From Pseudomonadota bacterium (GTDB lineage: Bacteria; Myxococcota_A; UBA9042; CAIXZC01), in the NCBI GenBank assembly GCA_043815665.1, contig JBDRIT010000002.1, positions 19,208-83,207 on the forward strand: 64,000 nt of DNA, read 5' to 3'. Shown piece by piece: positions 1,385-37,169 of the stretch; the stretch's first letter is position 1; each line of letters opens with the position of its first letter. The notes beneath the pieces were generated by a model. That model did no database searches and was not told the DNA's origin. It saw only the letters and a program-made list of their open reading frames with translations. A program made the translations under genes and the position numbers.

Positions 1385-1444
1385 CGACGATCCCCCTGAT
1401 CCTGTATGCTCGGTGGTCGAGAACTCCCGAATCGGAGGACCCGG

Positions 1445-4312
1445 ATGAGACGACTCGCGCTCGACACCTGCCCCATCGTCGTCATGACGACCACCCTCGC
1501 GCTCGCTGCCTGCTCGAGCGGCGGCGGCGGGCAGGACCTCGACTCCAGCGCCGGCGACGGCGCACGGCTCGACTGCACCGGAGACTGCCTGTCACAGGAG
1601 GACGGTCTCGAGCCGGGCGAGGTCGTGGATCCCGTGGACGGCGACGCGCCTCTGGATGGCCTCGGGGTTGACACCCCGGGCGAGGACACCGCGGCCCCGG
1701 GCTGTGACCCACCGGATTGCGACGACGGGAATCCCTGCACCGACGACCAGTGCAAGGAAGGGTTCGGCTGCCAGCACCTCCCCAGGACCTGCGACGACGA
1801 GGACGCCTGCACCGACGACAAGTGCGATCCCGCCTCCGGTGCGTGCCTCAACGAGGCCGTCACCTGCGGGGATGGCAACCTCTGCACCGAGGAGGTCTGT
1901 GATCCCGATGTCGGGTGCGTCTACACCCTCATTCAGTGCGACGACGGTGACCCCTGCACCTCCAACGGCTGCTCTCCGAACGGCGGCTGCGTCTATCAAC
2001 CCCTGACCTGCGCGGACGGGAACCCCTGCACCGACGACTGGTGCGACCCCGTCGCCGGGTGCCAGCACCAGGCGGTCGCGGACCCCGAGTGCTGCGCGAC
2101 GAACCAGGACTGCGAGGACGGATCCCCCTGCACCGATGATTCCTGCGTCGCGGCCTCCTGCGTTCACAGCGACGTCCCGGGGATGATCTGCTGCGACACG
2201 GACCTGGACTGTGGCGACCAGAACGACTGCACCGACGACATCTGCATCGAGCAGGTGTGCAACTACTTCGCCGCGGGCGAAGGCTGCTGCGAGGATGCGC
2301 TGGATTGTTCCGACCAGGACGGCTGCACCCAGGACCTCTGCCAGGACTTCCACTGTGTCCTGGCGCCCATCCCCGGCTGCTGCCACGAGAACCTGGACTG
2401 TGACGATCAGGAGGCCTGCAGCGCGGACATCTGCAGCATGACCGGCGGGGACTTCGGGTTCTGCCAGAACACCCTGATCCCCGACTGCTGCCACGACACG
2501 ATCCTCGAGTGCGACGACGGCGACGTCTGCACCACGGACGCGTGCCCCGGCATGGGAGAGGTCTGCGAGCACGCCCCCGTGGCGGGCTGCTGCAACGCCC
2601 CGTCAGACTGCGACGACGGCGACGGCTGCACCCTCGAGATCTGCATGAACCACGAGTGCTCCTGGTCCGAGATCTGCTGCCAGACCAACGCGGACTGCGA
2701 CGACGGGGACGACGTGTGTACCGTCGAGGAGTGCGTCGGCAGCTTCTGCGTCACCACCCCCACCGGCGCAGCGGGTTGCTGCGAGGTGCCGCTCTTCGAG
2801 GACGACTTCTCCACGAACAAGGGCTGGATCTACGACGGCGAGTGGGAGCGCGGCCCCGCGCAGGCGAGCACCGGCTCTGTCTACAACAACGATCCAGCTC
2901 TGGACCACACCGGCTCTGACGACAACTACATCGCCGGCGTGGTCATCGGAGGCCTGGCCAACACCAACCTCCACGACTTCGACTACCTCACCAGCCCCGT
3001 GGTCAGCGTCAACACCCCGGGGAACGTCCACCTCTCCTACCGGCGCTGGCTCAACAGCGACTATTCGCCGTACATGATCAACGTCGTCGAGGTCTTCAAC
3101 GGGGTCACCTGGGTGAACCTCTGGATGACCTCCTCCCCCGGGATCCAGGACTCCGTGTGGACTTATCACGAGTGGGACATCACGGCCCACGCGAATCCGG
3201 ACATGCGGGTGCGTTTCGGCTTCAACATCGGCAGCGGCGGCGTCTTTTCGATCTCCAGCTGGAACCTCGACGACGTGAAGATCCTCCGCAAGGAGGCGCC
3301 GCTCTGCTGCGCCTGGGACACGGACTGCGACACCGACGGCCTCGAGGCGGACGCGACCTGCATGGCTGGCACCTGCTCCTCGGGGGAGTGCCAGGTGGAC
3401 GCCCAGTGCGCCGACGAGGACTCCTGCACCGAGGACCTCTGCGTTGCGGGAGGATGCGTCCACGAGCCCATCGAGGGCTGCTGCAGCCTGGACGAGGACT
3501 GCGACGATGGGAATCCGTGCACTGACGATCTCTGCACCATCGACAGCTGCTCCCATGCGCCTGTCCTCGACTGCTGCCTCACCGCGGACGACTGCGGCGA
3601 CATGGACGAGTGCACCGCGGATTCCTGCGTCGAGAACCAGTGCCAGTACGTCCCCATCGACTTCTGCTGTGTCGTGGACGGGGACTGTGATGACGAAGTC
3701 TCCTGCACGGAGGACCTTTGCGTAGAGGGGATCTGCGTCAACACGCCGATCCCGGATTGCTGTGTCGTGGACGGGGACTGTGACGACCAGGATCCCTGCA
3801 CCGTGGACGCCTGCAAGGCCGGCTCCTGCAGCAGCCTGGAGCTGGTGGACTGCTGCGTCGACGACGCCTCATGCGCGGACGGCGACCCCTGCACCGAGGA
3901 CGCCTGCGTGGACAACGTCTGCGGCAACACGCCAATCATCGATTGCTGCGTCGACGACACGGAGTGCGACGACGAGGACCCGTGCACCGACGACGCCTGC
4001 ACCGGCAACGCCTGCGTGAACACCGCCATCCCGGACTGCGTCTCGGCGCCCACCTACACCAACGACGTCCAGCCGATCTACCTCGCGAACTGCAGCCCCT
4101 GCCACGCCGGCGGCGGGACCTCCGGGGGTGCCGGCTTCGGCGACTCCTACCAGGATGCGCTGAAGGACTCGACGATCTGCCCTGGGAAGGTCGTGGGCGA
4201 GTGCACCCTCATCCGGATCCAGAACGGCTCGATGCCCCCCGGCGGGGGCGGACCCACCGTAGACGAGCAGGCCGTGCTCCAGGCCTGGATCGACGCGGGC
4301 CTCCCCGAGTAG
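1445..4312 (+). CDS. Cys-rich repeat lipoprotein with C-terminal CxxCH (cytochrome-c-like) domain
   Basis: Start moved to ATG 1445 (MRRLALD...LALAAC lipobox). I count 19 C-T-x-D-x-C type modules (PCTDDQC, ACTDDKC, PCTDDWC...), resembling the Dictyostelium CTDC-type repeat. There is a central Cys-free beta-rich module. The C-terminus has NCSPCH (nt 4091-4105) plus ...NGSMPP...WIDAGLP, like the planctomycete PSCyt1 haem domain. Confidence 0.75.
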   Translation: MRRLALDTCPIVVMTTTLALAACSSGGGGQDLDSSAGDGARLDCTGDCLSQEDGLEPGEVVDPVDGDAPLDGLGVDTPGEDTAAPGCDPPDCDDGNPCTDDQCKEGFGCQHLPRTCDDEDACTDDKCDPASGACLNEAVTCGDGNLCTEEVCDPDVGCVYTLIQCDDGDPCTSNGCSPNGGCVYQPLTCADGNPCTDDWCDPVAGCQHQAVADPECCATNQDCEDGSPCTDDSCVAASCVHSDVPGMICCDTDLDCGDQNDCTDDICIEQVCNYFAAGEGCCEDALDCSDQDGCTQDLCQDFHCVLAPIPGCCHENLDCDDQEACSADICSMTGGDFGFCQNTLIPDCCHDTILECDDGDVCTTDACPGMGEVCEHAPVAGCCNAPSDCDDGDGCTLEICMNHECSWSEICCQTNADCDDGDDVCTVEECVGSFCVTTPTGAAGCCEVPLFEDDFSTNKGWIYDGEWERGPAQASTGSVYNNDPALDHTGSDDNYIAGVVIGGLANTNLHDFDYLTSPVVSVNTPGNVHLSYRRWLNSDYSPYMINVVEVFNGVTWVNLWMTSSPGIQDSVWTYHEWDITAHANPDMRVRFGFNIGSGGVFSISSWNLDDVKILRKEAPLCCAWDTDCDTDGLEADATCMAGTCSSGECQVDAQCADEDSCTEDLCVAGGCVHEPIEGCCSLDEDCDDGNPCTDDLCTIDSCSHAPVLDCCLTADDCGDMDECTADSCVENQCQYVPIDFCCVVDGDCDDEVSCTEDLCVEGICVNTPIPDCCVVDGDCDDQDPCTVDACKAGSCSSLELVDCCVDDASCADGDPCTEDACVDNVCGNTPIIDCCVDDTECDDEDPCTDDACTGNACVNTAIPDCVSAPTYTNDVQPIYLANCSPCHAGGGTSGGAGFGDSYQDALKDSTICPGKVVGECTLIRIQNGSMPPGGGGPTVDEQAVLQAWIDAGLPE

Positions 4313-26599: not shown

Positions 26600-27466
26600 T
26601 CAGAGGCTCATGACTCGTGTGGAGAAACCCTGCTCCTGCTCGAACTTGCTCTTGAACTTCTGGGCGTCTTTCATCTTCATGAAGCGGCCGACCCGGACCC
26701 TGTGCCACATCCCCTTGTCGCCGAGTTCGACGCGCTGGACGAAGGGGTGATAGCCTCGCTCCTCCATGAGTACGACGAAGATGCGGGCCTCGTCGGGGTC
26801 GCGGAAGGACTGGAGCTGGAGGGTATACTTGCCGATGGTGTGCCGCTCCACCACCACCTCCTTCGGCTCCTCCTCCCGGGCCGACGCAGGGGCGACGACG
26901 ATCTCGATCTCGACGTTGTCCTCCGGATCGATGCGCTCTCCCGCCTCGGCGGTGCGCGTCGGGGGGGCGCCGACGGCGCCCCCGGGGATCGGGGCTTCGT
27001 CAGATTTCTTGGCACCCGGATCAACCTTCACGGTCTCCCCGGTCACGGGATCGAGGGCGAGGCCGAAGCGCTCGCGGAGCACCTCGTCACTGAACTGGGA
27101 GAGCTCAACCTCCTGATCCGCCAGGTTCTTGGAACGGAACTGCCGGAGCGTGTGTGCCAGCTCGTCCTGGTCGATGCGTTGATCCGCTCGACGGCTCAGG
27201 AGGGTTGGAAAGAGGAGGAGGGAGCCGTCGGCAACCAGATCCGAGGCCGGAGTCAGGACTCGGAGGCTCCCCTCGAGCTGCTTCAATCCATCGGGCTCGC
27301 TCACCCCATGGATCCGGGCAATGGCATCGCCCTGGCCGAGGGTGAGGCCGAGGTAGAAGATCACACCGCCGACACCGAGACAGGCCACCACGATCTTGAT
27401 GATCATTCCCGCCTCGAGGTCGATATGGACCCGCTCCTGCAGCCGCTCCGAGTTCCTCAGGTGCAT
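26600..27466 (-). CDS. SPOR domain-containing (septal peptidoglycan-binding) protein
   Basis: AGGAG lies 8 nt upstream. One TM helix. C-terminal SPOR-like YTLQLQSFRDPDEARIFVVLMEERGYHPFVQRVELGDKGMWHRVRVGRF. Confidence 0.75.
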   Translation of the reverse strand: MHLRNSERLQERVHIDLEAGMIIKIVVACLGVGGVIFYLGLTLGQGDAIARIHGVSEPDGLKQLEGSLRVLTPASDLVADGSLLLFPTLLSRRADQRIDQDELAHTLRQFRSKNLADQEVELSQFSDEVLRERFGLALDPVTGETVKVDPGAKKSDEAPIPGGAVGAPPTRTAEAGERIDPEDNVEIEIVVAPASAREEEPKEVVVERHTIGKYTLQLQSFRDPDEARIFVVLMEERGYHPFVQRVELGDKGMWHRVRVGRFMKMKDAQKFKSKFEQEQGFSTRVMSL

Positions 27467-27612
27467 ATCAACACTCCTGGCATGGACTTTGGTTGTGAAA
27501 CAACGTCCCTGGTTGAACCTATCCCCGATTCAGGGAGACGCAAAAAACCGGCACTGTTCGGGGACGGTCTTGATCTGGAGATCCATTCGCACGGGCGCCC
27601 ACGTCGCCAAGC

Positions 27613-27628
27613 GTTGCATCTTGCCACA
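27613..27628 (+). promoter_or_regulatory. candidate upstream activator site, copy 1 (GTTGCATcttGCCACA)
   Basis: A 16-nt motif GTTGCAT-N3-GCCACA. It recurs with identical spacing at 27724-27739. It lies about 160 bp upstream of the sigma54 -24 element. Confidence 0.3.
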
Positions 27629-27723
27629 CCTGCCGCATTCCGCCACACATGGCCCATTTCACCGTTACGACCTTTGCCAACAGGAGGCATTGGTCTGACC
27701 GGTCCATCCGAGGTCCCGGGCCT

Positions 27724-27739
27724 GTTGCATAACGCCACA
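27724..27739 (+). promoter_or_regulatory. candidate upstream activator site, copy 2 (GTTGCATaacGCCACA)
   Basis: Second copy of the 16-nt motif. It lies about 50 bp upstream of the sigma54 -24 element. Confidence 0.3.
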
Positions 27740-27781
27740 ACGCAGAATCCGGAGGTCCGCATGAACACTGGGCCTGAGGCT

Positions 27782-27797
27782 TGGCACGTGCCTTGCA
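27782..27797 (+). promoter_or_regulatory. sigma54 (RpoN) -24/-12 promoter
   Basis: TGGCACGtgccTTGCA matches the consensus TGGCACG-N4-TTGCW exactly. It lies in a non-coding gap. Confidence 0.7.
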
Positions 27798-27807
27798 TCT
27801 AATCCGG

Positions 27808-28020
27808 GTGTTGATTGTTTTCTCCTATAAACGGTTATCATGTTCTACCCCAACTTCCTCGCTTCGGTCGCTGCGGTCGAATCGGGGCCCCGCCTCAGAA
27901 GAACAGAGATGCAGATGCGAGCTCGACGTGAAACTCTGTTCCTACTTTTAGTCTTCTGAGTTCTTCGGTTTTTCAAACGCGTCGAGTTCTGCAAAAAAGG
28001 GTCCTTCGGGACCCTTTTTT
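27808..28020 (+). ncRNA. candidate sigma54-dependent structured small RNA or 5' leader
   Basis: Bounded by the sigma54 promoter and an intrinsic terminator. Visibly AT-richer than its neighbours. No SD-preceded ORF. Nested complementary segments: 27894-27902 with 27952-27960, 27903-27908 with 27934-27939, and 27919-27928 with 27980-27989. Confidence 0.45.
27993..28020 (+). terminator. intrinsic (bidirectional-type) terminator
   Basis: AAAAAAGGGTCC-TTCG-GGACCCTTTTTT: a perfect GC-rich stem, a tetraloop and a T6 tail, with an A6 on the 5' side. Confidence 0.8.
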
Positions 28021-28109
28021 GCGTTCTGAGGAACCTTGCCCACGGTCTGGTGTCCCCGCCTTCACGTCTCGGCAGACGACCGTACCTCCCCCGGGAGACC
28101 TGGACATCA

Positions 28110-29633
28110 ATGAAGGCGAACCACGCCGCCGCTGCGCTCGCCTGGGCATCCCTCCTCGCGCTGGGAAACGTCCACGTCATCTCGGTCCTCCAGCCGCCCC
28201 GGTCCCTGAAGGCACCGATTCAGCGCCATGAGCTGATCATGCAGGCCAGGGAGGGCCCCTTCGAGTCTGCTCGCAGTCCTGTCGTCGAGGAGGCCTCCGT
28301 CATCCCGGATCACCTGGTCCTCCCGGACGGGGAGACCCACCTGCGTCCCCACGTCCCGCCGCCTCGGACCCGCCATGGATGGGTGTACCCCCTGCCCGAC
28401 GACGTCTCGCTCCTGCCGCACCCGATCCAGGCCGGCTGGTTCCAGGGCTGGACGCTCTCCCTCCCGGAGAGTCGGGCGCCGGGTTCCCCCGCCGCATACG
28501 ATGGAGCCGTCTATGTCGCGGGGGGAGCCGGCTCGAGGGACGTCTACTCCCTCGACGCCATCACCGGGATTCCGCTCTGGTCCGTCCGTCTCTCCGAGGA
28601 GGGACCGGCGAGCCTCGCCGTGGTCGGCCGCCACCTGGCCGTCGCCGCGGCGTCCGGGACCGTCTTCGTCCTCTCCACCTTCGACGGCACCATGATCTGG
28701 AGTCGCCGCCACGTAGGGGCGTACACCGGGTCGCCGGTGCTCACCGAGGAGGTCCTCATCGGCGGTCACCTCGGCCCCGAGGGCTACCTGATCACCGCAG
28801 CGAACCTCGAGAACGGCGATCCACTGTGGGAGGCCTCCATCGATGGACGGGTCCTGGGCGCGCCGGTGGTCGACGGCGGCTTGATCTACGTGGCAACCGA
28901 TGAGGGCTCCGTCTACTGCATCGACGCCCAGACAGGGCTCGAGCGCTGGAGCGAGCCGCTCGGCGCCTGGAGCACCCCACGAATTGACGGTTCCCAGATC
29001 CTCGTCGCCTGCGCAAACCCCTGGAGTCCGGCGGATGAGCAGGGGGCCCCCGGACTCCTCAGGGTCACCCTCTCCGCAGGCCTCCCCTTCGAACGTGTCG
29101 TATGGGGTCCACGGGAGGCAGGAGAGCATGTCCGTCTGGTCAGTCGCCTCTCCGTCGGTATGGGGTTCTCCGGGGTCCCTGCCGCAGGGTATCCCATGCA
29201 GACCGATGCCCGCCAGGAATCGGCGGGGGACGGCCCGGCCGCCTTCGACCAGGGAGATCCGACGGGCGCCCTGCCCCAGCCCTGGACCAGCGGTGGCGAC
29301 ATCTGCATCGCCGCGCATCGTTCGATTCGATGCGCAGACCTGAAAGCGGGTTCCCTGCGGTGGGAGTGGACACCCCCCTCGGATCTCGGCCCCTCCTTCA
29401 TCACCGGGACGCCGGCATTGTCCCCCACCAGCGTCATCACCGCGTCCACCCGGGGAGACCTGGCCGCGCTCCAACGGCAGGACGGCGAGGTCCAGTGGAC
29501 CCTCCGCCTCGGGGAACCCGTCACCAGCTCGCCGATCCTCAAGGACGGATGGCTGTACGTCACCACATCACGCGGCCGGGTCTTCGGTGTGGATCTGCAT
29601 GAACCAGCGGACTTGGATGCCACGCCGGATTGA
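28110..29633 (+). CDS. PQQ-like beta-propeller repeat protein (BamB-like fold), secreted
   Basis: Start at ATG 28110 with signal peptide MKANHAAAALAWASLLALG. Repeated blades: GAVYVAGG...VYSLDAITGIPLWS, GTVFVLSTFDGTMIWS, GLIYVATDEGSVYCIDAQTGLERWS, GDLAALQRQDGEVQWT, GWLYVTTSRGRVFGVD. Confidence 0.75.
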   Translation: MKANHAAAALAWASLLALGNVHVISVLQPPRSLKAPIQRHELIMQAREGPFESARSPVVEEASVIPDHLVLPDGETHLRPHVPPPRTRHGWVYPLPDDVSLLPHPIQAGWFQGWTLSLPESRAPGSPAAYDGAVYVAGGAGSRDVYSLDAITGIPLWSVRLSEEGPASLAVVGRHLAVAAASGTVFVLSTFDGTMIWSRRHVGAYTGSPVLTEEVLIGGHLGPEGYLITAANLENGDPLWEASIDGRVLGAPVVDGGLIYVATDEGSVYCIDAQTGLERWSEPLGAWSTPRIDGSQILVACANPWSPADEQGAPGLLRVTLSAGLPFERVVWGPREAGEHVRLVSRLSVGMGFSGVPAAGYPMQTDARQESAGDGPAAFDQGDPTGALPQPWTSGGDICIAAHRSIRCADLKAGSLRWEWTPPSDLGPSFITGTPALSPTSVITASTRGDLAALQRQDGEVQWTLRLGEPVTSSPILKDGWLYVTTSRGRVFGVDLHEPADLDATPD

Positions 29634-29676
29634 AACCTGCGTCCCCTGCGGATAGAATCCCTGCGAAGAGGACGCG

Positions 29677-31109
<1,433 letters not shown>

Positions 31110-31113
<4 letters not shown>

Positions 31114-33164
31114 CGCGCACGCCGCTGCGGCGCCTCGGCGCCGTGATCCTTCTCCACCTCCTCGTCGGCGCCTGCTCAGGAAGCGGCGCGCCCGGCGCGG
31201 ACGTGGTGAGCAGCCTGGACCTGGCGGAGGCTGACGTCGTGGTTCCCGTGGACGCGGGCGGCGAGATCATCCTTCTGCGGTGTCCGGCCTCCGTGGATCC
31301 CTCCCACGAGCCCGTCCGGATCCTCGAGAGCGACCGGGTCTTCTGGGATTCTCTTCTCTCGCGCATCGATCCGCCGGGCATCCCCGATGATCCCGACGCC
31401 TTCCCCGCCTGGCAGGACGAGACCCGGGAGGCCCTGCTCCACTCCCTTGGCTTTGACGGCATCGAGCCGCCGGGGACCTTCGTGGCGTCGGAGCTGGTCG
31501 ACGTCCTCGACAGAGGTGATCACCTGGTGGAGCTGCGGCTCGTGGAGGCGCATCCCGGGATGTGGATCCCCACCCTCGTGCTCCGACCGAAGGGGAATGC
31601 GACGTCCCTCCCCGGGATCCTGGTCCACCACGGACATGATCAGCCAGGGAAGAGTCGTGACGCCATCTTGACCCTCGGGGTGAACCTCGCCCGCCGCGGG
31701 GCGCTCGTGGTCCAGCCGGACTGGCTGTTCTTCGGGGATCTCACCAGGAAAGAGAACGACCACATGCACGCCGAGGGGAACCTCCTCGCCGGGCGCTCCA
31801 TGAACCTCCCCATCACCTCCGTCGCACGCCGCATGATCGATTACCTCGAGCAGCGGCCGGAGGTGGATCCGGCCCGCCTCGGGATGGTGGGACACTCCGG
31901 CGGCGCCGAGACCACCTTGTACCTCTCCGCTGCGGAGCCCCGCATCCACGCCGCGGCGCCCATCGACGGGGTGGACGACTGGACCTTCCGGGTCGGGTAC
32001 CGCCTCTTCCGGGATCCGGAGCACTTCCCGACCGCGCTCCTCACCTTCGCGGGATATCGGGAGGTGGTCGCCCTCTCGGCGCCCCGCTGGTTCTTCTCCC
32101 TGTCCGGAGACGAGGACTACATCGCGGGCCCCACCCATGTGGTCCAGGAGGTCATCGCGGACGCGGCCATCGCCTGGGAACACCTCGGGCATCCCGAGCG
32201 CATCCTCCACCAGGGCTTCCCGGGCGGCCACCAGGTCAACCGCGTCAAGCGGGAGGCCGTCTACGCGTTCTTCGCTTCGGCTCTGGACGCCCCGGGGCTC
32301 GCTGGCGAAGAGGACGGCACCGCCTTCACCGACGACCCGTCCCTCCACCTCGCACCTCCAAAGGGGAATCGGACGATCCTCGATGTCGTGCGGGATCTCC
32401 TGGACGAAGCCCTGGCCGCGCTCGATGCGCCCAGCGGTGACGCGCTCTCGCTGATCCTCGGGAGCCCCGGGCAGGGCAACGGTGTCCTGGCCCTCGAGGC
32501 CGCCGATGGGGCTCCGATTCCCGGACGGGCGATCCGGGACGAGGGACCGGACCTGCCTGTGGACCTCTATCTCCCGGAGGCCTGGGATGGCCGACGCGGC
32601 GTGATCTGCATCGCCCGGGAGGGCCGCGCCGCGTGCGCAGCGGCGGGGCGACTCCTCTCGGCCATCGGGTGGACCGTGCTGGCCGCAGACCTCCGGGGAT
32701 ACGGCGAGCTCTACGCAGATTGGCCTGCGGAGGATCTCTGGGACTGGGCCCGCACTGCGAACCTTGCGGTGATGCTCGGCGATCCGCTGCCCAACATGCA
32801 GGCACGGGATCTCTCCGACCTGGCCGTGGCGCTCCGAGGCCACCGGGACCTGGACTCCGTCGGGGTGATCGGGGTCGGTCCCGAGGGCGGGTTCCTCGCC
32901 CTCCTCTTCGGCGCGGCCATCCCCGCCCTCGATCCCGTCGTCGCCCTCGCCCCCCATCTCTCCCTCCGGTCGGACTTCGACGACCTGGGTGCGCTCTATC
33001 CGGCCCCCTGCCAGATCTATCCTTTCGGGATGTTCACCGCGGCCGCACCGGAGGACCTGGTCGGGCTCCTGGGCTCCAGGGACTACTACGTCACGGATCA
33101 CTGGGTTGCTGAAGTTTCTGATCAGAAAGCGCTGTGTAACTTCTTTATATCTTTGTGGAAATAG
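31110..33164 (+). CDS. lipoprotein with alpha/beta-hydrolase (esterase/dienelactone-hydrolase-like) domains
   Basis: The ATG overlaps the upstream TGA (ATGA). Lipobox LLVGAC. Nucleophile elbow GMVGHSGGAE. A second hydrolase-like half follows (…VIGVGPEGGF…). Confidence 0.6.
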
Positions 33165-34517
33165 CTAATTCCCGATCGCGTCGACGGCGGCATCCACGAT
33201 GCGATCGGCGTAGACGCAAGCCTGGTTCTCGTCGGGGCACTCCACCATGACCCGGAGGACATTCTCCGTGCCGGAGTAACGCACCACGGTGCGTCCGTCC
33301 GCGCCCATCTGAGCCTCCACTGCGCTGATGGCCTTCTGGACCGTGGGGAGATGTTCCAGATCAGGCTTGCGAGCCACCTCGACCTGCCGATGGACCTGGG
33401 GGAAGCGCACCATGACGTCGGCCAGCTCGGAGAGCGGTTTCTCCGCCCGGATCATGGTCGCCAGGACCTGCAGCGCAGAGACCATGCCGTCACCGGTGCT
33501 CGCGTGCTCGAGGAAGATCATGTGGCCGGACTGCTCCCCGCCGAACTTGTACCCCTCGGCCCGCATGCGTTCGAGGACGTAGCGATCACCGACCTGGGTG
33601 CGGACCACACGACCACCCGCCGCCTCGATACGACGGTCCAGTCCGAGGTTGGACATGATCGTCGCGACCAGGGTGTTCTTTGGCAGGCGGCCCTCGGCGA
33701 GCATCTGCGCGCCGATGAGCGCCATCACCGCGTCGCCGTCCACCACCCTCCCCTTCTCGTCGGAGAGGATCAGCCGATCCCCGTCTCCGTCCAGCGCAAT
33801 GCCAAGGTTCGCACCTTCCTGGACCACCGCCTCCGCCATGAACTCCGGGTGGAGCGCGCCGCATCGACGGTTGATGTTCGTCCCGTCGGGCCAGACCCCG
33901 CGCTCGATCACCTGGGCGCCCAGCTCCTCCAGGATGGCCGGCCCGACCCGATACCCGGCGCCGTTCGCGCAGTCGATCACGATGCGGAGCCCGCGGAGAG
34001 TCAGATCGTCCGGGAAGGCCTCCTGGGCAAAGACGATGTACCGACCCTGCGCGTCCGCGATGCGGTAGGCGCGCCCGACATCGGCGCCCACGGGCCGCCG
34101 CTCCTCGGCGAAGCCCTCGTCCATGAGGTCCTCGAGGGTCTCCTCCACCGCATCCGGGAGCTTGTAGCCGTCCCCCCCGAAGACCTTGATGCCGTTGTCA
34201 TGGAAGGGGTTGTGGCTGGCGGAGATCATGACCCCCGCCTGGGCCCGCATCTTGTGGGTCAGGAACGCGATGGCCGGCGTGGGCAGAGGCCCCACCTGGT
34301 AGGTGCTCGCGCCCATGGAGCAGGCGCCCGCGGCGACCGCGAACTCGAAGATGTAGCTGGATCGACGCGGGTCCTTGCCGATGAGAATCCTCGGCTCCGG
34401 ATGGTCCTTCGAGAAGTGCCACGCCAACACCTGTCCGAGACGCATGGCCATCTCGGGGCTCATGGGCGTCCGGTTCGCCTGTCCGCGGATCCCGTCGGTC
34501 CCGAAGTATCTCCGCAT
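33165..34517 (-). CDS. glmM: phosphoglucosamine mutase
   Basis: MRRYFGTDGIRGQAN..., active-site SASHNPFHDNGIKVFG, GDGDRL. Confidence 0.95.
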   Translation of the reverse strand: MRRYFGTDGIRGQANRTPMSPEMAMRLGQVLAWHFSKDHPEPRILIGKDPRRSSYIFEFAVAAGACSMGASTYQVGPLPTPAIAFLTHKMRAQAGVMISASHNPFHDNGIKVFGGDGYKLPDAVEETLEDLMDEGFAEERRPVGADVGRAYRIADAQGRYIVFAQEAFPDDLTLRGLRIVIDCANGAGYRVGPAILEELGAQVIERGVWPDGTNINRRCGALHPEFMAEAVVQEGANLGIALDGDGDRLILSDEKGRVVDGDAVMALIGAQMLAEGRLPKNTLVATIMSNLGLDRRIEAAGGRVVRTQVGDRYVLERMRAEGYKFGGEQSGHMIFLEHASTGDGMVSALQVLATMIRAEKPLSELADVMVRFPQVHRQVEVARKPDLEHLPTVQKAISAVEAQMGADGRTVVRYSGTENVLRVMVECPDENQACVYADRIVDAAVDAIGN

Positions 34518-34545
34518 CTTCTTCCTCCAATGATGAGGACGTTCG

Positions 34546-35538
34546 TCAGGGGGCGCGGCGCCGCCTGAGCTTGATCTTGAAATATCGGTTCTCCTCGTCG
34601 AGCTCGAAGCGCAGCCCCTCGCCCTCCCGGATCACCGGCTGCACGGGCCCGTACACCTCCGAGAGGAGATTCCCCGGTGGCGGCTGTATCCCGCCGGCGT
34701 CGAGCCAGACGTGGTTGCCCACGTTCGCCCGCGTGATGCCGACGAGGAGCCGCTCGGTCCCGGAGATCCGCACAGAGAAGCGCTCCGGGATCGCCCTGCA
34801 GGTGAACCCCGCCGGGCAATCCACGACGCGTATCGGGACGTCGGCCAGGGCCTTGACGTCGTGCTTGTCTCTCAGAGAGATGAGGACCCGGACCTTCGAG
34901 GGCTCGATGGTGATGAGATCGCCCGGGGGCGGCGCCACCTCGACCCGGGTCTCGTAGGCGGTCTCGAGGCCGGTGATGTCCACCGGGCGCGTGCTCAACT
35001 CCTCGATCTCGTCGAGGACCGTCATGGGACCGGTGATGGTGACCGTTGGCGGCGCCACCTCGATCCCGGCATAGTCCACGAAGACGTACTGGCTCGGTCG
35101 CCCCTGGACGTTGGGGCGCACGGACAGGGTGCGGGCGTCCAACGTGTCGATGCGCACATCGAAGGACGGTGGGTAGATCGCAAGGATCCGAGCCCCCTTC
35201 ATGTCCAGATGCTCTTCCAGGGCCTCCACGATGAACTCGTACTCGGAGCCGCCCTGGAGGTCGCCCAGGTCCACCACGAAGGTCTCGGGGGTCCGCTGCA
35301 GGTACGTGACCAGCCGGGACCAGGGCCCCCGGAGTCGCAGACGGATCTCCTTGGGCGGCTCCTCGAGCAGGAGCGCGCCCTTGGCCGGCAGGTTCGCGTG
35401 GATGGGCACGCGGATCTCCACCTCCCGGATGGTGTCCTGCCGGACCATCCAGACCAGGAGGATGGCCACCACCAGGGAGAAGGCCTTGAGGAACGGAAAG
35501 CGCAGCAGGCGCTGCACCATGGCGCTGCGCTCGCTCAT
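34546..35538 (-). CDS. cdaR: YbbR-domain protein (CdaR-like regulator of diadenylate cyclase)
   Basis: N-terminal TM helix followed by repeated YbbR-like beta modules. The ATG overlaps the cdaA stop (ATGA). Position between cdaA and glmM matches the conserved operon. Confidence 0.7.
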   Translation of the reverse strand: MSERSAMVQRLLRFPFLKAFSLVVAILLVWMVRQDTIREVEIRVPIHANLPAKGALLLEEPPKEIRLRLRGPWSRLVTYLQRTPETFVVDLGDLQGGSEYEFIVEALEEHLDMKGARILAIYPPSFDVRIDTLDARTLSVRPNVQGRPSQYVFVDYAGIEVAPPTVTITGPMTVLDEIEELSTRPVDITGLETAYETRVEVAPPPGDLITIEPSKVRVLISLRDKHDVKALADVPIRVVDCPAGFTCRAIPERFSVRISGTERLLVGITRANVGNHVWLDAGGIQPPPGNLLSEVYGPVQPVIREGEGLRFELDEENRYFKIKLRRRRAP

Positions 35539-36317
35539 CGGTCACCCCCGGCGCCGGTGTCCGTCAGGAGGAGCTCACGGAGCCGGTCCGGCTCCACGCC
35601 CATCTCGAACCTGCCGCCACGGGCCACGGAGATGCGGCCGGTCTCCTCGGAGACGACCACCACCAGGGCGTCGGTCTGCTCCGAGAGGCCCAGGGCAGCG
35701 CGATGACGGGTGCCGAGCTGCTCGTCGTCGAGGTTCTCGGACAGGGGCAGGATGCAGTGCGCCGCCACGATGCGGTTGTTGCGGACGATGACTGCGCCGT
35801 CATGGGTCGGGTTCTCGTAGGCCGGGACGAAGAGCAGGAACAGCAGGTGCCGCTCCAGGGCAGCGTCCAGCGGGATGGAGCCCTGCTCGAAGGGCGAGAG
35901 GTCGCCGGTGCGCTCCATGACGATGAGGGCCCCGATGCGTCGCGAGGAGAGCGCCCGCGCCGCGTCCACGACCTGCTCGGCGGACTCGGACGTCGTCCTC
36001 GCACCGGAGCCGCCCCCGAGCCAGCCCGGGACCCAGTAGAGCCGCCCCAGGGCCCTCCGGATGTCCTCCTGGAACAGGATGATCACGAGGATCAGGAGAC
36101 TGCCCATGAAGTTCGAGAGGAACCAGTTGACCGTGGTCAGCCCCAGGACCCGGTCGCTGGAGACGGTGTAGAGACCGAGCACTGCGGCGAGCCAGATGAA
36201 GGCCTGGAACGCCCGGGTGCCGCGGAAGAGGAGGATGACCTGATAGATGATGAACGCCACGACGAGCACGTCGAGGACGAACCGCACCACCTCCAGACCG
36301 CTCCCCAGGAAGCTCAT
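35535..36317 (-). CDS. cdaA: diadenylate cyclase (c-di-AMP synthase), membrane-bound CdaA type
   Basis: Three N-terminal TM helices. DAC domain motifs PTHDGAVIV and GTRHRAALGLSEQTDALVVVVSEETG. Confidence 0.9.
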   Translation of the reverse strand: MSFLGSGLEVVRFVLDVLVVAFIIYQVILLFRGTRAFQAFIWLAAVLGLYTVSSDRVLGLTTVNWFLSNFMGSLLILVIILFQEDIRRALGRLYWVPGWLGGGSGARTTSESAEQVVDAARALSSRRIGALIVMERTGDLSPFEQGSIPLDAALERHLLFLLFVPAYENPTHDGAVIVRNNRIVAAHCILPLSENLDDEQLGTRHRAALGLSEQTDALVVVVSEETGRISVARGGRFEMGVEPDRLRELLLTDTGAGGDR

Positions 36318-36326
36318 CGTCGTACC

Positions 36327-37169
36327 TCAGACATCCCAGACGATCCCGTCGACCACGCGGACCACGTCCCGCATCGCCTCCACGTCGTGTACACGGATCA
36401 GGTGGACACCCTGCGCCGCCAGGACGGCGACCGCCGCCGCGGTCCCCATGACACGCGCTCCGTGGGCCCGCCCCGTGAGCTCACCGATGAACCGCTTGCG
36501 GGAGGGCCCGTACACGACGGGATAGCCGCCGAGGAGGACCTGGGTCGCGCTCCGCATGAGCTCGAGGTTGTGCGCCAGGGTCTTGCCGAACCCGATCCCG
36601 GGGTCGATGAGGAGCGCGTCCCGTCGGATCCCCCGGGCCTGGGCCCAGCTGGCCTGCATGTGGAGGAACTCGATGACGTCGTCGACAACGTCCACGTACT
36701 CCGGGGCGTCCTGCATGGTCGCCGGGGGCCACAGCGCGTGCATGATGATCAGGGGGCAGCCTGCCGCGGCCACCACGTCCACCATGGCGTCGTCGCCACG
36801 CAGGGCGGAGACGTCGTTGACCATCTCGGCGCCGGCGGCCAGGGCGGCCTTCGCAACCGGAGCCTTGAAGGTGTCCACTGAGAGGATGACATCGAGCCTG
36901 GCCGCGACGGCCTCGACAATGGGGATGACCCGGTCCAGCTCCTCCTGGAGCGGCACGGGCGCAGCGCCGGGGCGCGTGGACTCGCCGCCGATGTCGATGA
37001 CGTGGGCGCCTGCGGCTGCCATGTCCGCTGCATGATCCACGGCCGCGGCGCGCGTCTGGAAGCGGCCGCCGTCCGAGAAGGAGTCGGGGGTCACGTTCAG
37101 GACCCCCATGAGACGGGTCCGATCGAGGGTCAGCTCACGCGTCGCCGTCTTCAGGGTTCGTGTCCTCAC
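36327..37169 (-). CDS. folP: dihydropteroate synthase
   Basis: [30 protein letters not shown]. The 5' end overlaps the ftsH 3' end by 35 nt. Confidence 0.9.

Follow-up and report, generated by a model that had tools for sequence, protein, structure and literature searches.

A conserved, structured RNA gene with a sigma-54 promoter upstream of an orphan NtrC-type response regulator gene

The DNA analysed in this work is a stretch of 64,000 nucleotides (nt) from contig JBDRIT010000002.1 of GenBank assembly GCA_043815665.1, referred to here as the window, and our subject is a putative RNA gene on its plus strand. The gene lies in a non-coding gap of 643 bp, which extends from the start (27466) of a minus-strand gene for a SPOR-domain protein (26600-27466) to the ATG (28110) of a plus-strand gene for an exported BamB/PQQ-like beta-propeller protein (28110-29633). 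The propeller gene is followed on the same strand by the gene of an NtrC-family response regulator (29677-31113) with a receiver domain, a sigma-54 AAA+ domain and a Fis-type helix-turn-helix, which we presume to be the activator, and by a gene for an alpha/beta-hydrolase-fold protein of 684 amino acids (aa) (31110-33164), whose start overlaps the activator stop. Within the gap, candidate activator sites and a sigma-54 promoter precede an RNA of about 213 nt (27808-28020) that ends in an intrinsic terminator. The start of the RNA is placed by promoter geometry, and its end is the U-tract of the terminator. A preliminary description of this DNA had proposed a sigma-54 promoter driving a structured, terminator-capped non-coding transcript of about 210 nt next to an NtrC-type activator gene, and comparison with relatives lends support to this proposal.

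Orthologues of the response regulator share 87, 86, 82, 75, 75, 75, 70, 63 and 62% identity with it, and the next relative falls to 53%. On the relatives' contigs the gene order is conserved as UvrA, a hypothetical gene, a PGI-like SIS protein (minus strand), the SPOR protein (minus strand), RidA (plus strand) and a gap of about 430-780 bp, after which come either propeller, regulator and hydrolase genes or regulator and hydrolase genes directly. Ten distinct copies of the RNA element were found: those of the window and of loci L001, L002, L003, L004, L006, L022, L024, L025 and L026. The L003 copy is identical to those of L019-L021 and the L004 copy to that of L005, while the copies of L006 and L026 are truncated on the 5' side by a contig edge, so that these two loci do not reach the promoter. 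All copies other than the window's come from metagenome contigs and metagenome-assembled genomes (MAGs). Each of the ten lies immediately upstream of the orthologous activator gene or of a propeller-activator pair, in the same orientation, and the RNA was present on every regulator-orthologue contig that extends far enough upstream. Every locus has one copy; the covariance model described below found no second one in the window. The locus of the nearest non-orthologous regulator examined (53%; L027/L028) has a different gene context and is without an RNA copy. A scan of a genome collection with an invariant 21-mer gave L006 as its one true copy and L007 as a chance match, a metagenome scan with an invariant 19-mer gave 11 chance matches and zero new copies, and blastn against plasmids gave no match to the element. 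L006 is a MAG labelled "uncultured Myxococcales bacterium", and one regulator orthologue is labelled "Deltaproteobacteria bacterium". The family ranges over one narrow, rarely sampled lineage of uncultured bacteria.

The sigma-54 (-24/-12) promoter at 27782-27797 of the plus strand, TGGCACGTGCCTTGCA, reads TGGCACG-TGCC-TTGCA. It is the sole match to TGGCACG-N4-TTGCW in the 64 kb, even when one mismatch is allowed. At least one match arose in 22 of 100 shuffles, so that a chance match is not improbable, and therefore the weight of the promoter call rests on conservation. Each of the 11 syntenic loci that extend to the region has a single exact consensus, invariably at the RNA gene; the other loci have none. 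In all eight loci that cover the promoter the consensus positions are invariant and the 4-nt spacer is free to vary (TGCC, CGGT, CGGC, CGAA, GTGC or ACGC). The RpoN promoter noticed earlier at this place is thus both present and conserved across the syntenic loci, and the -24/-12 element (TGGCAC-N5-TTGC) is kept at the 5' end of the RNA, which is one feature of sigma-54-dependent regulatory RNA genes.

Upstream of the promoter, two identically spaced repeats had been described, GTTGCAT-N3-GCCACA. Both are present, exact at 27613 and 27724, and conserved, but with a third, degenerate copy at 27632 they are better described as three dyad-symmetric sites of the form GTnGC-N5-GCnACA. Site 1 (GTTGCATCTTGCCACA, 27613-27628) is centred at -187.5 from the predicted start. 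Site 2 (GCCGCATTCCGCCACA, 27632-27647), which has a degenerate left half, is centred at -168.5, 19 bp from site 1. Site 3 (GTTGCATAACGCCACA, 27724-27739) is centred at -76.5 and is symmetric enough to match both strands. The dyad is enriched in the window (5 matches; expected, 0.51). All three sites are found in the window and L001-L004, at -187.5 to -189.5, at -168.5 to -170.5 and exactly at -76.5, with variable inner bases; by this criterion, two of the three are retained in L022, L024 and L025. The site 1 dyad has the same position in the window, L001-L004 and L024, and its "n" and N5 bases vary. Among the eight loci that cover the upstream region, site 2 lies at -166.5 to -170.5 in all and site 3 at -75.5 or -76.5 in seven, and 41-42 nt separate site 3 from the promoter, the most distant copy (L025) included. 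The three-site upstream architecture, the promoter and the linkage to the activator gene are conserved, and activator sites whose distance from the promoter is fixed are a second feature of this functional class. The motif is TGT-N11-ACA-like, the type used by NtrC-family activators, and the product of the neighbouring gene is the likely protein to bind it.

Between site 3 and the -24 element lies a further conserved block, GCATGAACACTG (27759-27770; -49 to -38). It reads GCATGrACACTG, is invariant in the six sequences of the alignment of the window's clade (A1) and has related sequence in L024 and L022. No recognised factor site was matched to this block. Inspection of the DNA between sites 2 and 3 gave no convincing match to the integration host factor consensus WATCAR-N4-TTR.

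The terminator, AAAAAAGGGTCC-TTCG-GGACCCTTTTTT (27993-28020, plus strand), consists of a 12-bp stem of six A-U and six mainly G-C pairs, a 4-nt loop and a U-tract. This textbook intrinsic terminator, noticed earlier about 210 nt downstream of the promoter, is kept in all ten copies. Its helix is 100% paired in 10 of 10, with one compensatory pair (U-A to C-G in L025 and L026), and efficient termination at 28020 would be expected. A simple terminator scanner missed it, probably because the A/U pairs extend the stem and so consume the T-run.

The interval had been called non-coding and AT-richer than the genes around it. Its GC content is 0.44-0.57, compared to 0.64-0.79 in the neighbouring genes, and many G-U pairs in its helices are compatible with the plus strand only. 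A different explanation would be that the interval encodes a small protein, in the 39-codon open reading frame (ORF) at 27840-27959 or in another, or that the promoter is a chance match in an intergenic region decaying after loss of a RidA gene. This ORF does exist and is initiated by ATG, promoter matches arise in shuffled DNA as stated above, and the window is without the RidA gene that relatives carry at this place. However, the ATG of the ORF is ACG in every relative that aligns there, no ORF with a shared frame, start or length was found across the RNA homologues, and the 5' domain of the RNA has indels of 1, 2 and 4 nt. Moreover, promoter, upstream sites, helices and terminator have all been kept, with compensatory changes. 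These comparative data contradict a small ORF or a decaying region, which we regard as highly improbable, and the earlier non-coding call is upheld. These comparisons show the RNA gene to be real, conserved, non-coding and encoded on the plus strand, and conserved secondary structure with its own terminator is a third feature of the class.

The RidA/Rid-family gene (110-131 aa) lies between the SPOR gene and the upstream sites of the RNA in every relative whose contig covers the interval (L001 2881-3276, L019 3553-3948, L022 5073-5468), at a place corresponding to 27467-27612 of the window. A RidA pseudogene in the window's gap was considered and dropped; tblastn gave nothing significant there, and only the last 30 nt or so of the gene align weakly in DNA. 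The absence of RidA from the window looks like a lineage-specific deletion that ended just short of activator site 1.

The fold of the RNA is supported by covariation. As a single sequence the RNA folds better than its shuffles (z = -3.4). A covariance model, R1, built from seven full-length copies, found a single full copy in the window (244.9 bits) and recovered the distant copies of L025 (81.8 bits) and L026 (89.7 bits). Pairs were counted on the covariance-model alignment over six helices, namely P1, P2, A, B, C and the terminator. Standard pairs are formed by 95.0% of the cells, and 21 pairs show changes on both sides, compared to 6.8 +/- 1.9 in shuffles; none of 500 shuffles reached 21. 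When partners were slid by 1-3 columns, at most 6 covarying pairs were obtained. A MAFFT-only alignment of seven sequences gave the same trend (11 covarying pairs vs. 2.8). The comparison of promoter, helices and terminator among relatives, which had been suggested earlier, thus found all of them conserved and the helices covarying.

Hairpin P1 (27809-27842) pairs 27809-27815 with 27837-27842; 93.6% of its cells are paired, and 2 of its 6 pairs are changed on both sides (e.g., GGT/ACC to GAT/ATC in the window). Hairpin P2 (27857-27887), with a conserved apical CUGC, pairs 27857-27870 with 27874-27887; it is 88.8% paired and has compensatory changes in 7 of 13 pairs. Helix A, CTCAGAAGA/TCTTCTGAG (27894-27902 with 27952-27960), and helix B, ACAGAG/CTCTGT (27903-27908 with 27934-27939), together form one long interrupted hairpin (27894-27960). 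Helix A is held in the window's clade and in L024, but most of it is disrupted in L025 and L026. Helix B pairs at 100% in every one of the ten copies; its change in L003 (ACAGAG/CTCTGT to ACGAAG/CTTCGT) is a double compensatory one. Helix C, GAGCTCGACG(TG)/(CG)CGTCGAGTTC (27919-27930 with 27978-27989; span 27919-27989), is 98.3% paired and has compensatory changes in 7 of 12 pairs; its arms in L025 and L026 are largely rewritten, yet they are complementary (TGCTCACTGC/GCAGTGAGCA).

Helix C crosses both helix A and helix B, as its 5' arm is located inside the helix B loop and its 3' arm follows helix A on the 3' side. Three pairs of complementary segments had been described as nested; all three are present, conserved and covarying, but the third crosses the first two. 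From the topology and the covariation, A+B with C would form either an H-type pseudoknot or two alternative folds. If they are taken as exclusive, the A+B and C folds are within 3 kcal/mol of each other in 5 of 8 complete copies, the window included, and the C fold is favoured by 5-12 kcal/mol in L004, L024 and L025.

The CUGC in the apical loop of P2 (27871-27874) and a GCAG in the loop of helix B (27911-27914) are kept in every copy that includes them. The two are complementary and may form a loop-loop tertiary contact, a pairing on which covariation is uninformative because neither motif varies.

The two domains of the RNA differ in conservation. Identity to the window in L001-L004 and L022 is 88-92% for the 3' domain and 58-70% for the 5' domain; for the coding DNA of the regulator it is 78-83% in the four of these loci that allowed the measurement. 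The 3' domain is thus better conserved in the window's clade than the coding DNA of the activator. Its most conserved part is a pyrimidine-rich stretch, UCCUACUUUUAGUCUUCUGAGUUCUUCGGUUUUUCAAA (27940-27977, plus strand), of which the middle, 27952-27960, is the 3' arm of helix A. This stretch is largely kept across the ten copies and is about half unpaired in either fold, and it is a candidate interaction surface or seed for pairing with targets.

On these grounds, we consider it probable, though by no means certain, that the element is a stand-alone, sigma-54-dependent regulatory RNA of about 213 nt, controlled by the neighbouring activator and acting in trans. The NtrC-type response regulator would be made from its own sigma-70-type promoter and be activated by a kinase or another signal. 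It would bind the three dyad sites at -187.5, -168.5 and -76.5 and open the sigma-54 promoter at 27782-27797; transcription would start near 27808 and mostly stop at the terminator (27993-28020). The product would have a variable 5' domain (P1 and P2) and a conserved 3' domain with the A+B hairpin and the 12-bp helix C, which would form the H-type pseudoknot or alternate and frame the pyrimidine-rich stretch. This stretch would contact targets in trans, most likely mRNAs by base pairing, possibly aided by a protein, so that synthesis of the RNA would report the activity of the adjacent orphan response regulator. In this scheme we infer the exact start, efficient termination, binding of the three sites by this particular activator, and action in trans.

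A number of observations weigh against a stand-alone RNA acting in trans. The family is small, with 10 sequences from one narrow lineage. The start, the termination efficiency and the abundance of the RNA are all predicted. The count of 21 covarying pairs comes from an alignment that the model had fitted to helix C. The 90 nt from the terminator to the propeller gene are conserved and foldable, which fits transcription that carries on past the RNA. The activator ATG of L024 is only about 30 nt away from the terminator, with no convincing promoter between them on inspection, and some read-through of the terminator may therefore be functional. The conservation of about 130 nt at about 90% exceeds what simple seed-type pairing by a small RNA (sRNA) needs, and hints at a protein partner or an elaborate mechanism. 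In addition, a duplex scan of the pyrimidine-rich region against the 43 translation-initiation regions of the window gave matches no better than those of shuffled seeds, a negative that is weak as the scan covered 64 kb only. Its best match, 9 bp at codons 4-7 of the SPOR gene, follows from conservation of the protein and does not persist in L022 or L024; the SPOR gene was rejected as a target. Two other targets were rejected also: the start region of the activator gene, where the 8-bp match ACCGAAGA/UCUUCGGU is not conserved among orthologues, and the leader of the propeller gene, where a short CACGUC/GACGUG match is lost in L004 by inspection.

The observations on read-through bear on the second of the two readings offered earlier, in which the element is a cis-acting leader for autoregulation. 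The sigma-54 transcript would then be mainly the 5' part of a propeller-activator mRNA, with a leaky or regulated terminator, and the species of about 213 nt would be a by-product. By this means the activator would boost its own synthesis, and the RNA is indeed always upstream of the activator in the same orientation. The short terminator-ATG distance in L024 and the conserved, foldable interval before 28110 agree with it, and so does the lack of any sigma-70 promoter match by the scanner in that interval, where none had been obvious earlier either. A precedent is the co-transcription of glmY with qseEGF in Proteus mirabilis (PMC8745638). On the other side, a leader would precede a gene without its own promoter, whereas the activator gene has a sigma-70-like promoter, TTGAAA-N17-TAGAAT (29630-29658, plus strand), with 10 of 12 matches, none being expected by chance. 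This promoter lies 18 nt before the activator ATG and overlaps the propeller stop codon, and its -10 element (TAGAAT or TAGGAT) is found at the same place in L001-L004, L006, L022, L023 and L025. The RNA stays the same whichever gene comes next, the propeller gene (one clade) or the activator gene (other clades). The terminator keeps its perfect 12-bp stem and U-tract in all ten copies, and inspection of the alignment, without a formal search, found no conserved pairing that would compete with its 5' arm as an antiterminator. A partial terminator complement, GGCCCUU/AAGGGUC, occurs in some copies and is missing in L025 and L026. Because the activator has its own promoter and the downstream gene differs between clades, the stand-alone RNA, the first of the two earlier readings, is favoured over a leader, which we consider unlikely, although some read-through of the terminator may occur.

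The interval downstream of the terminator has conserved features of its own. At 28030-28055 of the plus strand lies GGAACCT-N12-GGTGTCC, in which both blocks are invariant in five sequences and the spacer is free in sequence and fixed at 12 in length. The two blocks are complementary to each other. The element could be either an ECF (extracytoplasmic function)-type promoter for the propeller gene (GGAAC-N17-GTC), in which case it would speak against the leader, or a hairpin in a read-through transcript. The propeller-gene leader (28066-28109, plus strand) has two hairpins. The first, CGTCT-CGGC-AGACG (28066-28079), is invariant; the second covers the Shine-Dalgarno-like GGGAG (28093-28097) and remains paired although its sequence changes (GTCTCC/GGGGAC, TCCTC/GAGGA). 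Such a leader suggests that the propeller gene is controlled at the level of translation.

The conservation and the target scan bear on another explanation, that the RNA binds a protein, its pseudoknotted 3' domain docking or sequestering a protein instead of pairing with mRNAs. Precedents for protein docking are GlmY with RapZ and 6S RNA with RNA polymerase. The length of the conserved domain, including unpaired bases and above the level of the neighbouring coding DNA, would fit this, as would the pseudoknot fold with its possible two-state behaviour, a tertiary contact between the invariant CUGC of the P2 loop and GCAG of the helix B loop, and the lack of a base-pairing target in the window scan. 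However, inspection of the RNA showed no repeated protein-binding motifs, for instance GGA loops as for CsrA or several A-rich blocks as for Hfq/Crc, the conserved neighbourhood has no candidate gene for an RNA-binding protein, and the target scan carries the limit of range given above. We regard protein binding in place of pairing as rather unlikely. A more speculative idea, to which we give a low probability, is that the 3' domain is a two-state pseudoknotted module, A+B against C, which senses or docks a protein or a small molecule and so gates the pyrimidine-rich strand.

The RNA gene was previously uncatalogued. Searches of the window with Rfam 15 at gathering thresholds gave only three tRNAs and no family for the RNA, and at E <= 10 gave only terminator-driven noise and a sub-threshold match to RF02502 Atu_C8, a Rhizobiales sRNA. 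This match scored 29.7 bits in L025 (E of about 2e-4, over a short stretch) and 17.1 bits in the window, against a gathering score of 50. In this best sub-threshold match, a long stem followed by a G+C-rich terminator aligns with the model. However, only helix C and the terminator align, the 5' hairpin of the model is deleted, and the loop has 46 nt where the model has 26. We therefore rejected homology to Atu_C8 and read the match as a generic architecture in common.

By architecture, the closest analogue of the locus is enterobacterial glmY with GlrR. GlmY (and sigma-54-type GlmZ), with GlrK/GlrR (QseE/QseF), shares with the present RNA a size in the range of about 150-210 nt and a sigma-54 promoter. 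Like the present RNA gene, glmY has three dyad sites (TGTC-N10-GACA more than 100 bp upstream of glmY, GTnGC-N5-GCnACA here) and lies directly upstream of the locus of its response-regulator activator, with a gene for an exported accessory protein in between (QseG there; the beta-propeller protein here, in part of the family). Several differences are found as well. The fold of GlmY is one of simple stem-loops, in contrast to the pseudoknot proposed here. There is no match in sequence or structure, and the Rfam models GlmY_tke1 and GlmZ_SraJ gave no match even at E <= 10. The present locus has no histidine kinase gene and belongs to another phylum. No link to glmS or RapZ is known here; neither glmS nor rapZ was seen in the annotated parts of the window, and a nearby glmM on the opposite strand may be a coincidence. 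In E. coli, the sRNA gene glmY, which depends on sigma-54 and has three activator sites, precedes the genes of its two-component system and is transcribed independently of them (PMC3045617), while in Proteus mirabilis it is co-transcribed with qseEGF from the glmY promoter (PMC8745638). The same ambiguity between independent transcription and co-transcription is mirrored in the present locus.

An analogy to Pxr of Myxococcus (Cystobacterineae) had been drawn earlier. The control logic is alike, as pxr has a sigma-54 promoter and adjoins the gene of an NtrC-like regulator (nla19), but no homology and no Rfam family at threshold were found, and glmY/GlrR is closer. The myxobacterial attribution of the present family is by MAG labels only. 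Pxr has 108 nt in three stem-loops (SL1-SL3), with SL1 and SL2 conserved in sequence, and is encoded downstream of nla19, between nla19 and an NADH dehydrogenase gene (PMC5568312). In contrast, the present RNA has about 213 nt, with two 5' hairpins and a pseudoknotted 3' domain, and is encoded upstream of the activator, between the RidA (or SPOR) gene and the propeller or activator gene. A 21-nt segment of ancestral Pxr is absent from the window even at 3 mismatches, and membership of the Pxr family was rejected. The arrangement of an NtrC-family regulator, a sigma-54 promoter and an adjacent sRNA gene is known also from Qrr1/LuxO of Vibrio and from CrcZ/CbrB and NrsZ/NtrC of Pseudomonas. These RNAs are unrelated to the present one in sequence, size and fold, in line with the lack of an Rfam match. 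They act via Hfq-dependent pairing or by sequestration of Hfq/Crc and carry recognisable motifs, whereas no Hfq/Crc-type motifs were seen in the present RNA.

The propeller protein has only four relatives among 5.8 billion proteins, at 55-64% identity. Its gene is missing in L006, L022, L024 and L025, and L026 has no room for it. By inspection of L022 (5874-6000) and L023 (540-661), about 70 nt matching the 3' end of the L023 propeller gene persist downstream of the RNA terminator in L022, followed by the same spacer and promoter region as in L023. Because of this remnant, the propeller gene was probably lost by deletion in the L022 lineage rather than gained in the window's lineage. The hydrolase-fold gene lies directly 3' of the activator gene on every contig long enough to include the whole downstream gene. 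No histidine kinase is encoded in the annotated locus or nearby, and the 684-aa hydrolase-fold protein might, given this absence, be part of the signalling module. Its dienelactone-hydrolase-like core is short (residues 154-286 only). Immediately downstream of the regulator-hydrolase pair, on the minus strand, is a cluster of folP, cdaA (DAC domain), cdaR (YbbR) and glmM (33165-37169), which is retained in the closest relatives (L004 and L019) and not in L022. Elsewhere in the window, 1406-4312 encodes a 968-aa protein with Dictyostelium-type CTDC repeats (Pfam PF00526), and a faint match to this repeat was also seen in one related locus, L027.

The RNA represents a new family, with no Rfam 15 model at threshold, of a known regulatory kind, that of GlmY, Qrr, CrcZ, NrsZ and Pxr. 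Its comparative support is unusually complete for a candidate known only from metagenomes: a promoter, a three-site enhancer, a covarying pseudoknotted fold and a terminator, all of them conserved and tied to one orphan NtrC-type response regulator. The proposed circuit of activator, three sites, sigma-54 promoter and RNA is testable and could be rebuilt in a heterologous host. If the two-state module were true, it would be a trans-acting RNA switch of a new class, controlled by sigma-54, in bacteria affiliated with Myxococcota, and the switch could feed back on the propeller-activator-hydrolase module via terminator read-through. To our knowledge, Pxr is the myxobacterial sRNA whose regulation has been worked out, and a second, unrelated example beside it would broaden the picture of myxobacterial sRNAs.

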